Shown: positions 4,416-25,972 of the stretch, piece after piece
How the letters are laid out: every line of letters starts with the position of its first letter
How positions within the stretch are numbered: the first letter of the stretch is position 1
NCBI GenBank assembly: GCA_964016885.1
Contig: OZ024763.1
Location: forward strand, 28,830,001 to 28,894,000
DNA length: 64,000 nt
Direction: 5' to 3'
Origin: Eledone cirrhosa
Taxonomy: Eukaryota
Notes under the pieces: model-generated
Seen by the model: only the letters and a program-made list of their open reading frames with translations
Told to the model about the DNA's origin: nothing
The model's database searches: none
Position numbers and translations under genes: made by a program

Positions 4416-4689
4416 CGAAATAATATAAGCTTGAAAGACAACACGATGGCGACTAAAGGATTGATTTGCGACAGTTGCTGATTTTTGTATTTTTCCTCCA
4501 TCAGTGAAAATATGTTTCTGATAATAATCTATCGTTATATGGAAGTCGTTTAACTAAATCTTTCCTAACACGCTGAACACTTATCGATTAGTTTATCCGG
4601 GAAAAACTATGAAGGACATCCATCTATCTATTCCCTTTTTATCCCTCTCCTTCTCATCACCATCATCATCATCATTATTATTAGTATCA

Positions 4690-4875
4690 AGGGCGGTGGA
4701 TTGGCAGTATCGGTAGAGGGTCGGACGCCATGCTTTCCAGCACAGTTACGTCCCTTTACGATCTGTGTTCAAATCCCGCCGAGGTTGACTTTGCCTTTCA
4801 TCCTTACGGGGTCGATCAAATAAAGTACCAGTAATGCACTGGGTAATTGCTGGCCTTGTGCCTAAAGTAGAAACA
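4690..4875 (+). mobile_element. Full-length family-A SINE (~190 bp) with 16 bp TSD
   Basis: A-box-like TGGCAGTATCGG, B-box GTTCAAATCC, core GCCTTTCATCCTTACGGGGTCGAT..AAATAAAGTACCAG; TSD ATTATTATTAGTATCA at 4674-4689 and 4876-4891. Confidence 0.92.
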
Positions 4876-4919
4876 ATTATTATTAGTATCATTGTTATTA
4901 TGTTTCATATATTTTACAG

Positions 4920-5012
4920 GTTGAGGAAGACCAGGAGACTGTTGTAACAGGATTAGACAAGAGGGTGGAGAGAGAGAGAAGACTAAACGTAAAGAAGAGA
5001 GAAGAAGAGTGA
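4920..5012 (+). CDS. Probable terminal coding exon (VEEDQETVVTGLDKRVERERRLNVKKREEE*)
   Basis: Acceptor tttcatatattttacAG (AG 4918-4919), phase 0 matching exon 476-578, TGA stop at 5010-5012, AATAAA signals at ~5062 and ~5071. Confidence 0.55.
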   Translation, partial: VEEDQETVVTGLDKRVERERRLNVKKREEE

Positions 5013-5211
5013 GAGAAGAGAAAGGAAGAAGAGAAAGGAAGAAGAGAAGAACCCAAAATAGAATAAATAGAATAAATCTAGAACAAACACACAAACAACA
5101 ACTACAAATAAATCCAAGCTCTGTCAGAAATCTTCGGAAATAAATGCTGAAATATTGTGAGTTGGATTCCCGGCAGTAACGTTGTTGAATGCTATTTCAT
5201 TTCAATTTTAC

Positions 5212-5252
5212 CACACACACGCACGCATACACGCACACACACACGCACACAC

Positions 5253-5341
<89 letters not shown>

Positions 5342-5372
5342 GATAGATAGATTCATGTAGATAGATAGATAT
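5212..5372. repeat. (CA)n plus (GATA)n microsatellite
   Basis: Direct inspection. Confidence 0.95.
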
Positions 5373-5491
5373 AAATGTAATCTGAATTTTTCGAATATTA
5401 ATAATAATATTCGATTCGTTTGCAATTATGCAAACAACCTCTTTTAAGCCATGTCAGTAGAATGAGCCCCTCATTCTTGCTCTTGTGTTGT

Positions 5492-5708
5492 GTCGGGTGG
5501 TTCAGGATTGGTAGAGTAGCTGAATGAACCCTGGCTGGTCATCACCCCTATTGGGGAATTTTCCTTGTTGTATTTTTATTGTTATTTTGTTATTGTTATT
5601 TTGTTATTGTTATTTATATTGTTTACACGTTGTATATGTAAACTCCCACTGTCCCAGTCTTTTGTTTTGTCCCCTATATGTCGGCCCTTGTGGCAAATAA
5701 ATGAAATC
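5492..5708 (+). mobile_element. 5'-truncated copy (3'UTR only) of the Tx1 family at 10997-16852
   Basis: Aligns by eye to ~16618-16825, ending tcccctatatgtcggcccttgtggcaaataaatgaaatc(ATT)n. Confidence 0.9.
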
Positions 5709-5726
5709 ATTATTATTAACTATCAT

Positions 5727-5912
5727 AAGGGCGGTGGATTGGCAGTATCGGTAGAGGTTCGGACGCCATGCTTTCCAGCATAGTTACGTCCCTTTACCAT
5801 CTGAGTTCAAATCCCGCCGAGGTTGACTTTGCCTTTCATCCTTACGGGGTCGATAAAATAAAGTACCAGTAATGCACTGGTAATTGCTGGCCTTGTGCCT
5901 AAAGTAGAAACA
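5727..5912 (+). mobile_element. Full-length family-A SINE with 18 bp TSD
   Basis: TSD ATTATTATTAACTATCAT at 5709-5726 and 5913-5930. Confidence 0.92.
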
Positions 5913-22158: not shown

Positions 22159-22160
22159 TA

Positions 22161-22202
<42 letters not shown>

Positions 22203-22470
22203 CAGTTAATGTAGGTTGTTTACGCACGTGAGCTCTCGATGTGTAGATTCACGTCTTTAACGAGGTGTAGAACTAAACAGTGTGTAAATATAATAATACA
22301 AGGACGATTTGTTATGTCCTTATTACGTTTATTGAGTAGTGACGCGCGTTTCGCTATTGATCAGCTCAAGGTTCGATTTTTATCGATATAACCCGATTCT
22401 GGAATCAAAAGCTCGTCGGACCTCTGTTGTGGTAATGAGAGAATTATTATTATTATTATTATTATATAAA

Positions 22471-22663
22471 GGCGGTGGCTTGGCAGTATCGGTAGAGGGT
22501 CGGATGCCATGTTTTGAAGCATAGAGTTACCTCCCTGTATGATCTGAGTTCAAATCCCGCCGAGGTTAACTTTGCCTTTCATCCTTCCGGGGTCGATAGA
22601 ATAAAGTACCAGTAATGCACTGGGTAATTGCTGGCCTTGTGCCAAAAGTAGAAACAATTATTA
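22471..22663 (+). mobile_element. Full-length family-A SINE next to an (ATT)n tract
   Basis: Complete A box, B box, core and tail. Confidence 0.9.
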
Positions 22664-23054
22664 TAATATATATATACTTTATAAACAATAATCAAAAAGT
22701 CTTTAGAACACTTTAGAACATTCAAATGTTCTAAAGACTCTGATTGTTGTTTATAAAGTATTTCTGCTCTATAGTATACTTGTTATTTTACATTGAGCCA
22801 TTATCATACTTGTAATTGGATAATATTTAATGTTACCCATATTATATATATATATGTTTATCCTGGGTTCAATCGGGGGTAACCATAGTAAGTAAGGTAC
22901 TCAATACATAGCAGAATATAAATATTTAATATAGAAATGGCTTCTACAGGACTAGAACTGTTTCATTCTCCTTGGGGAGATCGGGATATTCTTTCAAGGA
23001 GATATCGAAATCGAGTTTGGTCATCGGGCGCTGGCTCCGCTTAGGACCTTCCTA

Positions 23055-23090
<36 letters not shown>

Positions 23091-23317
23091 AGCAACAACA
23101 AAATATATATCTGTGTCTCCTATGTGAGAAAAATCCTTGAGTATTTGTATTGGAGTTTTAAAAACTGTGCTAAACTTTGACTTTCCAAACGGATTTACTG
23201 GATTTACCCAAAGAGAGACGTAAGGAATTAGGTAGGTGACATTTTATTAAGAATATAAGAGTTTATTGTATGTTGTATATATTTTAATGTTTAATTTCAG
23301 CTTATTGGCCCACTTTT

Positions 23318-23747
23318 CAGGGGCGGTGGAAGCATTTCTGTATTGGTTAGAGGTGGGGAAAATGTTGTCAATTTAGTTGTAGTGATTAGTTTAGTTATTA
23401 TCAAATGTCAACCAAGATATAAATATCTTCGATATGCGATAAACATAAATTGTACATAAATGTTTAATTTCAACATATCAGCCGAATACTTAGGACCGGT
23501 GAAAGCATTTTTGAATTGGGTATTGGGGCAAATTTGGTCAATTTAGTTGTAGTGATTAACTTAGCTGTTATTATCAATTATTAACCAAGATATATATATA
23601 AAAAGAAATCTTTGATATGCGATAAACATAACATATACATAAATTGTAGCGTTCATACAAATAGATATTTTGGTAGTTAGGGTGAACTATATAATTGAGT
23701 ATTGGCAGGGCATTGCCACCCTGGCCAGTCAAGTTCCACCGCCCCTG
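23318..23747. mobile_element. MITE with 14 bp perfect TIRs (hAT-like CAGGGGCGG termini) and an internal duplication
   Basis: caggggcggtggaa (23318-23331) and ttccaccgcccctg (23734-23747); no clear TSD. Confidence 0.65.
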
Positions 23748-23919
23748 TACTATCTCTAATATAATTGTCACGTAAACCTTAATTTGCACCGTTTCCATTT
23801 GCATCTGTCAAATAACGAACTACAATATGTAAACATGGATATTTTTGATTTTTTTTTTTTGTGATTTTCGTTTGAATAATTAGGGGCTGGGAATATATCC
23901 CCGGCAGCGAATTCAGCAA

Positions 23920-24310
23920 GTTAGGGCTGAAGAAAATATCAGTTTCGTAATAAAAACGAGTTTGGGCCCAAGGAATTATTTTCGTAATAACAGTGAATTA
24001 AGGTCCAAGGAATTATAATTTTCGTAATTACAATGACTTAGGGCGCAAGGAATTCGTTTTTTCGTAACAACAGCGATTTAGGGATCACGGAAATATCATT
24101 TTCGTAATAAAAGCGATTTAGGGGTCCAAGGAATTAGATTTTTCGTAACAAAACCGATTAGGGATCACGGAAAAATTATTTTCGTAATAACAGCGACTTA
24201 AGGATCATAGAAATATTATTTTCGTCATAATCTATTTAGGAATCGTGGAAATATTATTAAGGGTCCAAGGAATTATTTTTTCCTAATAACAGCGAGTTAG
24301 GGTCCAATGA
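23920..24310. repeat. ~39 bp degenerate minisatellite
   Basis: ttagggtccaaggaattattttcgtaataacagcga-like unit about ten times. Confidence 0.85.
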
Positions 24311-25074
24311 CTAACACCTGTAACTAACTAAATATACGCGTCATTAATGTGTTAAACTTTCGAAAGCTATGTTGTGTGTTCGAATCCTAGAAGGAAACAG
24401 TTTTGTTCTTGAGAGCAAAATGTTTTACTTCACACTATCTTTGCTCCGAGACTGATAGGACTCAATACAAACACTTTTGTCATCGATTTCTTTAAGTTCC
24501 ACTTATTTTTTTACCTATATTGTTTTGCTTTTGCTGTTATTTTTTTGCAATTTACTCGATATATTTAAATCTCTCCTGCTCCTGTTTTTGGTACTTTGTT
24601 TTGTCCTTAAAATTTCGGTCCTAGTGGCCAACATTGAGGTTAGCTTTGCCTTTCATCCTTACTGGATCGATAAAATAAGACACCAGTAATGCACTGGGGA
24701 CGATTCAATTGAACCCCCCCCCCCCACCTAAAATTGCTGGCTTTGTGCCTAAATCATCAACCATTGATATGGAAGCTATATGCGGTGGATTGGCAGTATT
24801 GGTAGAGGGTCGGACGCCATGCTTTGCAGCATAGAGTTACGGCCCTTTACGATCTGAGTTCAAATCCAGTCGAGGTTGACTTTGCCTTTCATCCTTATGG
24901 GGTTGACAAAATAAAGTACCAGTAATGCACTGACATAATTGCTGGCCTTGTGCCAAAAAGTAGAAACAATTGTTATGGATGTAACGAAGGAAACAAATTT
25001 ATGGAGTGGTACGAAGCTATTGATATGCTTGCTACCCTTGGAAATCCTAATACTAACACTCACGTGTATGTACT

Positions 25075-25972
25075 ATTGTTTCTTCGCTTAGCTTCTAACG
25101 CTGGAGATGTATTACAATGTTACCTCAGTTCACTGCCAGTTAACCGAGGTAACACCTCTTATTTTTAGAGTACTCTCTGGAGTATTCAAGCTGTTTGAAA
25201 CAATGTTTTCTTTTGCAAGTGTTCCATCGGTATTGCAATCCCTATTTGTTTAATATACTTCTCAAGATCTTTACTCACTGTTCCCAAGACTCCAACTATT
25301 ATTAGTATTACCAGGGCGGTGGATTGGCAGTATCGGTAGAGGGTCGGACGCCATGCTTTTCAGCATAGTAATGCACTGGGGTCGATTCAATTGAATCCCC
25401 CCCCCCCCCTGCCCCCCCTCCCCACCTAAAATTGGTGGCTTTGTGCCTAAATCAGAAACTATTGATATGGAAGCTATATGCGGTGGATTGGCAGTATTAG
25501 TAGAGGGTCGGACGCCATGCTTTGCAGCATAGAGTTACGGCCCTTTACGATCTGAGTTCAAATCCCGCCGAGATTGACTTTGCCTTTCATCCTTACGGAG
25601 TCGATAAAATAAAGTACCAGTAATGAACTGGGTAATTGCTGGCCTTGTGCGCCTAAAGTAGAAACAATTATTAGTATTACCATCACGTTTTTCAGTGACC
25701 TCAACTACTCAACCTCCCAATTTTCTTTCCTTCTTTATCACATACCTTGTTATCAGTTGCACGGGTTATATCTGTGATCCAACACTGTTTGCTTTCTTTC
25801 TCAATTAATACAATATCTGGTCTCCTGTGTTCAATCTCGTAGTCACACTGTATCACGAAGTACCACAAGATCTTTGCATCATCATTTTCGATAAGGCCAT
25901 CAGAGTTATCTTCGTACCACTTTTCTGTTCTGTCAAATGCATATTTGCCACAGAGTGACCAATAGACTCTCC
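25075..25972 (-). pseudogene. Decayed 3' end of an RLE-type (R4/Dong-like) non-LTR retrotransposon, split by a SINE insertion at 25314-25666
   Basis: Manual translation: YWSLCGKY..KWYE...ENDDAKILWYFVIQCDYEIEHRRPDIVLIEKESKQCWITDI...VMVILIIVGVLGTVSKDLEKYIKQIG...LQKKTL; internal stops. Confidence 0.8.

Follow-up and report, generated by a model that had tools for sequence, protein, structure and literature searches.

The locus and its SINE family

The 64,000-nt stretch of the Eledone cirrhosa genome analyzed here (contig OZ024763.1, positions 28,830,001 to 28,894,000 of the forward strand), hereafter the window, contains a family of short interspersed elements (SINEs) of 185 bp with ~50 matches, together with an intact long interspersed element (LINE) of the L1/Tx1 type that is a candidate partner for their mobilization. 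Four of the SINE insertions are bounded by target site duplications (TSDs) starting with ATTATT, and it is the origin of these duplications that is considered below. All coordinates are positions within the window, and SINEs and LINEs lie on the (+) strand unless stated (Table 1).

The SINE occurs as a long type, with a hairpin and a C-run before the tail (for example, 16990-17092), and as a short type without them (for example, 5860-5912). Judged from its sequence, the short type looks younger, and the long type is commoner in reads (22,685 loose ends at 5880 in run X4). A B-box pattern was found in 12/12 SINE bodies and a relaxed A-box pattern in 8/12, both as internal boxes of RNA polymerase III (pol III). 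A T4 terminator is absent in 10 of the 12 bodies, with the first T4 lying 5-458 nt downstream, so that the SINE transcripts would run into the flanking ATT. No tRNA homology of the SINE head was detected, since ARAGORN predicted 0 genes and Rfam gave no tRNA match in 4600-6100. Assignment to the MetaSINEs was not borne out by a comparison of short motifs, which gave one 7-letter match in an unlike context and none for longer motifs in two of the three supplementary files. The literature matches listed for the SINE motif were unrelated, and Repbase/SINEBase may already name the SINE and its partner.

Target site duplications starting with ATT

As the initial annotation had described, there are four direct repeats, each an exact match, at 4674/4876 (16 bp), 5709/5913 (18 bp), 17840/18045 (17 bp) and 25298/25667 (16 bp). 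All four start with ATTATT and enclose SINE sequence, and in each the 3' copy begins at the first base past the SINE terminus GAAACA. The chance of a whole TSD match within 30 positions is ~3e-9 to 4e-8 per pair. The proposed enrichment of ATTATT was also found locally: with a background of 0.0028 per strand-site (3700-29000), four of four by chance would have a probability of ~6e-11. Among the curated element ends in the window, 20/29 are followed by ATTATT and 23/29 by ATTAT; a TSD anchored at a SINE end tends to start with ATT anyway, and therefore only the 5' copies are informative.

Table 1 Coordinates of the SINE and LINE insertions, their flanking duplications and associated repeats in the window
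Position	Strand	Feature
4674..4689	+	Copy 1, 5' TSD, 16 bp, where (CAT)n gives way to (ATT)n
4690..4875	+	SINE copy 1, short type, A- and B-box-like motifs
4876..4891	+	Copy 1, 3' TSD
5492..5708	+	LINE 3' fragment (83% to the intact copy) with an end that marks a nick used twice by SINEs
5709..5726	+	Copy 2, 5' TSD, 18 bp, immediately after the LINE 3' end (5708)
5728..5912	+	SINE copy 2
5913..5930	+	Copy 2, 3' TSD; first 15 bp double as 5' TSD of the next, truncated SINE
5940..6000	+	5'-truncated SINE (positions 126-185); 2 mismatches and 1 gap vs copy 2
6001..6015	+	Third copy of the 5709 target, 15 bp
10973..10996	+	(ATT)8, 5' flank of the intact LINE, immediately behind a long-type SINE end
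10997..16825	+	Intact L1/Tx1-type LINE, candidate partner
11207-13117	+	LINE open reading frame (ORF) 1, zinc-knuckle-like motif
13147-16566	+	LINE ORF2: APE endonuclease (N-terminal), reverse transcriptase (RT), zf-RVT; no internal stop
16826..16852	+	(ATT)9, 3' flank of the intact LINE; next SINE of the tandem run follows
17747..17839	+	5'-truncated SINE whose end adjoins the copy 3 TSD; 6 mismatches and 1 gap vs copy 3
17840..17856	+	Copy 3, 5' TSD, 17 bp, immediately after a SINE 3' end (17839)
17857..18044	+	SINE copy 3
18045..18061	+	Copy 3, 3' TSD
18247..19700	+	Short- and long-type SINEs in head-to-tail order, mostly with ATT spacers of up to 11 units
24969..28306	+	Tandem duplication of 1.67 kb with 98% identity (1635 matches, 28 mismatches); copies copy 4 and its TSDs
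25298..25313	+	Copy 4, 5' TSD, 16 bp, in unique-looking sequence
25314..25666	+	Copy 4, 353 bp composite: SINE head (1-57), long-type SINE tail, spacer, second SINE
25667..25682	+	Copy 4, 3' TSD
28315..28606	+	LINE fragment, 5'-truncated, from a diverged subfamily (66%), after a SINE end and ATTATTAT; terminus GAAACA as in the SINE
34510..34697	+	Full SINE inside (TA)n, no ATT past its end (ATATAT at 34698); exception
58942..59082	-	5'-truncated SINE, exact 12 bp TSD starting ATTATA (59082/58953); exception at position 6

The SINE bodies of the four copies differ at 5-16 positions pairwise, and they therefore represent separate insertions. Their proposed independence holds in this sense but not in full: copies 2 and 3 adjoin earlier element ends, and copy 4 is a duplicated composite. 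Two of the four targets, those of copies 2 and 3, are themselves made or marked by the same element system. The copy 4 composite is related to a dimer at 24668-24968 (262 matches, 18 mismatches), and its TSD is present four times, with the second pair at 26969/27330, because of the 1.67 kb tandem duplication. Dimers of a long-type tail, a spacer and a short-type SINE were found twice, 700 bp apart (24636-24968 and 25314-25666), and in the TSD-flanked one head position 57 is joined to the tail at a 3-letter shared stretch. This joint suggests a read-through dimer RNA with an internal deletion, or a template switch.

In total, 29 element ends in the window were inspected for TSDs. The truncated SINE at 5940-6000 carries a TSD of 15 bp that lies inside the 18 bp TSD of copy 2 (5709/5913/6001), and the copy 2 TSD includes three bases found only after the earlier event; in the simplest order, all at this one nick, the truncated SINE would have arrived after the LINE end and before copy 2. 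Short or imperfect matches were found at 22470 (9 bp) and 4229 (7 bp), and most of the remaining ends showed no credible TSD. In 6/6 SINE pairs with an exact TSD of at least 12 bp, both TSD copies carry the same number of ATT units, which indicates that the ATT is derived from the target and is not an added tail. The other three pairs comprise 4229 (equal but short), 22470 (unequal, 7 vs 2) and the LINE (unequal, 8 vs 9). No constant sequence precedes the nick (ATC, ATC, ACA, ACT, TTC, ACG).

ATT is a preferred, not a fixed, insertion target. The fixed ATTATT motif of the initial annotation was contradicted by ATTATA at 59082/58953 and ATATAT at 34698. Its two-nick geometry, with a first nick at the start of ATT and a second at a distance of 15-18 nt, agrees with all clean pairs. 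A target preference independent of the tail sequence, which had been argued from the presence of ATTATT on the 5' flank, is unsupported: the 5' copy is the target, and a match to the RNA 3' sequence is also predicted by pairing. Independence of the tail does not follow, because SINE transcripts without a terminator would carry the same ATT.

The candidate partner LINE

The two-ORF architecture of the intact LINE and its ORF2 with APE, RT and C-terminal zinc finger are those of the L1 group, and the best solved relative of ORF2 is human L1 ORF2p (E 4e-57, residues 3-852). Target sequence preference, a trait of the Tx1 clade, is also seen in this LINE. Its two open ORFs lie 29 bp apart, and a protein of 78% identity (P0001) exists; from its sequence, the LINE may be active. 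ATTAT follows all three LINE ends in the window, and a weak fourth LINE fragment lies at 24504-24631. The last 30 nt of the SINE, compared with each of these three ends, scored in the top 0.3-0.5% of 11,536 LINE 30-mers. Moreover, 4/4 long-type SINE tails matched the 3' end of a distant relative of the LINE (L073, 41% identity, described below) better than all 2,650 control windows. A hairpin with a CTYGT loop is predicted for the intact LINE and for three relatives (L073, L077 and L107). The LINE is likely, as a candidate, to be the mobilizing partner of the SINE. Neither this LINE nor the use of earlier element ends as new targets figured in the initial annotation.

Chains, orientation and local duplications

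The 50 elements in the window form 5 orientation runs compared with 24.6 expected, and 31/33 close neighbors are co-oriented. Local duplications also occur. Both breakpoints of the 1.67 kb duplication lie in SINE 3' ends, which is consistent with unequal exchange between SINEs, and further duplications were found at 5853-6015 (88 bp) and 18364-18624 (75 bp units); the latter is a minisatellite whose units are built from the SINE 3' end.

Other repeats share the window. Unrelated minisatellites (144 bp, 40 bp and 89 bp units) occur among 17295-17635, 23914-24258 and 700-2100, and very long (TA)-rich satellite tracts at 35251-53631 and 59816-63622 show a near-complete strand skew of G or C, with interspersed retrotransposon fragments. 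By eye, RT-like fragments of other LINE clades were seen at ~39500-41300 (-) and ~19945-20245 (+), and a second, different tRNA-like SINE family at 7750-7900, 55270-55400 (-) and ~59300-59400 (-).

The ATT junction in other samples

We compared the SINE-dominated stretch 5400-6065 (666 bp) with two contig sets from one sample and two restriction site-associated DNA (RAD) runs from other individuals, that is, with four of six runs. Of 12.47 M and 12.79 M reads, 171,007 and 158,818, respectively, fell on this stretch. Among the reads crossing the LINE end, 6,092 and 6,497 continue via ATTATTATTA into further ATT units (consensus agreement 0.67-0.68), and the reads entering ATT amount to ~90% of the depth just upstream (6,814 and 7,199) in the two other individuals. 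For the SINE, 324 contigs continue in ATT past 5922. Head-to-tail SINE joints were found from 5918 to 5730 (30 and 38 contigs) and from 5919 to 5733 (20 and 24), and a tail-to-tail joint in one row (14 and 16 contigs), among the joints listed. For the SINE 5' flanks there was one uninformative loose-end row, made up of 38 contigs, with AT-rich sequence and an agreement of 0.44. Read ends at 5915 (7,216 of 9,829 and 7,266 of 9,217 molecules), 5882, 5973 and 6003 were rejected as a biological signal; since all fall on AATT, they are most likely cuts of the restriction library, and such cuts conceal most SINE 3' flanks in the RAD runs.

Distant relatives in head-to-tail arrays

Related loci were found in genome contigs, with 41/44 falling in one bacterial bin and the encoded LINEs being 39-44% identical to ORF2. 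We infer that the loci in this bin are eukaryotic carry-over, most likely mis-binned host DNA. The bin loci (L073-L111, L114 and L116) occupy at least 16 contigs of up to 94 kb with animal-type LINE arrays of several subfamilies. No ORF2 relative was obtained in viral contigs (0/81 candidates), and 75 more distant or unrelated loci (72 from the metagenome, 3 from genomes) gave 6 motif matches, none followed by an element-type end.

The relatives are arranged head-to-tail in units of ~6.4-6.9 kb, and these arrays resemble LINE-derived satellites. All 51 junctions, on 16 contigs, have a 3' end that contains a C-run, GGCCTHGTGCC (H = T, C or A) and AATAAA but lacks an A tail, together with a spacer particular to each array, and none of the 51 starts with ATTATT. 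At L110 the same 16 nt occur at the 5' flank and past the 3' end, and at L090 the spacer precedes the first unit in unique DNA; the array spacer is therefore a TSD of 16-17 bp. In L098 and L089 a 5'-truncated unit comes after the spacer of 17 nt, an arrangement that would be the signature of re-insertion at the same nick, without ATT. Most of the relatives' units may come from unequal exchange, and only the L098 and L089 events count as re-insertions. Thus the length of the TSD, the end without a tail, the motif in the tail and landing behind the element's own end are traits of the lineage, whereas ATT is not (0/51).

Proposed mechanism

Our results directly show the TSDs, the similar 3' ends of SINE and LINE, their common ATT junction and the co-oriented chains. 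We consider it probable that the SINE TSDs were made by the enzyme of the L1/Tx1-type LINE, nicking at the start of ATT and priming on an RNA that likely carried ATT. In this mechanism, LINE ORF2 would recognize a 3' element common to SINE and LINE, a short hairpin whose loop is CTYGT, and nick the lower strand opposite the first base of ATT. Priming would start at the last base of the element, with the read-through AUU complementary to the nicked primer, and the upper strand would be cut 15-18 nt downstream. The product, an element end followed by ATT, would form a new target in the same orientation, behind which later SINEs and LINEs could land, and unequal exchange between SINEs would then duplicate blocks. 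Because the transcripts would carry the AUU of the flank, something must set the internal priming start. Pairing sets this start for L1 (PMC3649969) and has been proposed to do so for RTE, CR1, L2, I and R1Bm (PMC6007223).

Several observations weigh against this reading. The Tx1 membership of the LINE is putative, and searches brought up no named Tx1 reference. The similarity between the SINE and LINE ends is short (30 nt, ~60% with gaps), and the last 60 nt of the short-type SINE showed no significant match to L073 (fraction 0.11) or L077 (fraction 0.27), the fraction for L107 being 0.0125, with L073 as the clean control set and the L077 and L107 controls containing the end of the previous unit. 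On account of this lack of a significant match, another LINE family may be the true partner of the SINE. The CTYGT hairpin was absent from the plain minimum free energy fold of both SINE types and of the fragment ending at 28606. Under pairing, a slipped register or extra ATT units would sometimes be expected, and they occur in 0/6 clean pairs; the start can also be set by RNA structure alone, as in R2 (PMC3649969). The SINE patterns had 0 matches in the metagenome, genome and viral contigs. The RAD counts may stem from few loci, and no empty allele at 5709-6015 was found among the 15 joints listed, the RAD runs having no coverage of the unique flank. Lastly, the orientation list was merged by hand and local duplicates were not fully removed from it.

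Alternative explanations

The LINE endonuclease alone might recognize and nick ATTATT, with no role for RNA pairing. The equal ATT run lengths in 6/6 clean pairs, the junctions that follow the target (ATTATA, ATATAT) and the location of copies 1 and 4 at ATT sites that are not element ends agree with this explanation, as does the account of the Tx1 clade in PMC4494074, where target choice is said to be set mainly by the endonuclease. Against it stand the lack of a fixed motif and the variable sequence before the nick, and the 5' copy cannot separate the enzyme from pairing. In addition, the relatives re-insert at one nick despite having no common TSD motif (0/51 with ATTATT). We regard an endonuclease acting alone as rather unlikely.

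A further idea, which we hold to be doubtful, is that the target is handed on by the RNA: a tailless transcript would read into the duplicated flank and pair with the nick, so that the flank of the founder becomes the target of the family and new insertions fall behind the family's existing copies. ATTATT would then be one inherited target, fixed because it is a common microsatellite too, and the 16-17 bp spacers of the relatives, which truncated units re-use, would be others.

ATT could also be a tail encoded by the element, with the apparent targets being a passive outcome, in clusters of repeats, of local tandem duplication and gene conversion together with survival bias. Local duplications are indeed real, as seen in the 88 bp, 75 bp and 1.67 kb blocks, and many of the 20 ends followed by ATTATT have no detectable TSD. 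Yet the exact TSDs of copies 1 and 4 lie in flanks that are not element sequence, neighboring copies differ (6 mismatches for copy 3), the copy in (TA)n has no such tail, and partners that differ in kind (a SINE behind a LINE, a LINE behind a SINE) go beyond duplication, all of which makes a passive origin improbable. It is very improbable that a TAA-targeting Dong/R4-type LINE mobilizes the SINE, with the L1/Tx1-type LINE merely in the same habitat. In favor of this, TAA repeats are the target of Dong elements, including one from a snail (PMC3812793), and Dong-R4 outnumbers all other recently active LINE groups in Octopus vulgaris (PMC13282606 Table 1). On the other side, in a comparison confined to L1/Tx1-type LINEs, the SINE tail is similar to their 3' ends both in the window and in the distant relative, and the LINE has the same ATT junction.

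Comparison with known systems

In the portions of the literature cited here, the closest case is SINEU-3/Tx1-Mar of crocodilians (Kojima 2015, PMC4494074). Like the elements in the window, it combines a SINE and a Tx1 LINE with a common target preference and an expected TSD of 16 bp, and its tandem SINEs sandwich one TSD through sequential insertion. In contrast, SINEU elements have small nuclear RNA heads, poly(A) tails and a Mariner transposon as target, whereas those described here have pol III boxes, no A tail and an ATT target; for SINEU-1, the same excerpts report no LINE with its 3' part, whereas here the SINE 3' end resembles that of the LINE. Kibi, Koshi and the crocodilian (TTCC)/(TTTC) Tx1 families are also APE-type LINEs that prefer microsatellites (PMC4494074, PMC3812793), but these target pyrimidine repeats and not ATT. 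The excerpted literature on microsatellite-targeting LINEs contained no ATT-targeting Tx1 family or SINE partner, and Repbase/SINEBase may hold one. Dong targets the same trinucleotide repeat as the elements here and has one member in a mollusc (PMC3812793). It is grouped as Dong-R4 (PMC13282606). The Dong-R4 group encodes a restriction-like endonuclease, whereas the LINE here has an N-terminal APE domain.

The double insertions and transposon-derived tandem arrays, including those of R1, treated by McGurk and Barbash (10.1101/158386) share with the present system an insertion that keeps its target intact while doubling it. Further common features are head-to-tail dimers joined at a TSD, second copies truncated at their 5' end, and unequal exchange at a later stage. 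In those arrays a fixed site preference is the cause, whereas the relatives described here re-use one nick and their TSDs differ between arrays. With regard to L1/Alu T-tract priming and the tail-TSD correlation of RTE, the relevant sections of PMC3649969 and PMC6007223 describe TSDs that start as the RNA 3' end does, as would be the case here, and partial pairing that helps priming. L1 TSDs are ~15 bp, as stated in an excerpt of PMC4245944. The repeat is A for L1/Alu but ATT here, where clean pairs have no surplus tail beyond the TSD.

Significance

SINE copies in tandem are not independent markers, and ATT past a SINE should not be annotated as a tail without a look at the 5' flank. If the proposed mechanism is true, a family that draws >1% of reads would owe its same-direction chains and its lengthening of ATT microsatellites to a single LINE lineage with its SINE. 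It would also provide a test case for the roles of the endonuclease and of RNA-primer pairing in LINE targeting, a question raised in the sections cited from PMC3649969 and PMC6007223, since within one lineage the TSDs start with ATT here but have no motif in a relative, and an intact copy with two ORFs is at hand.

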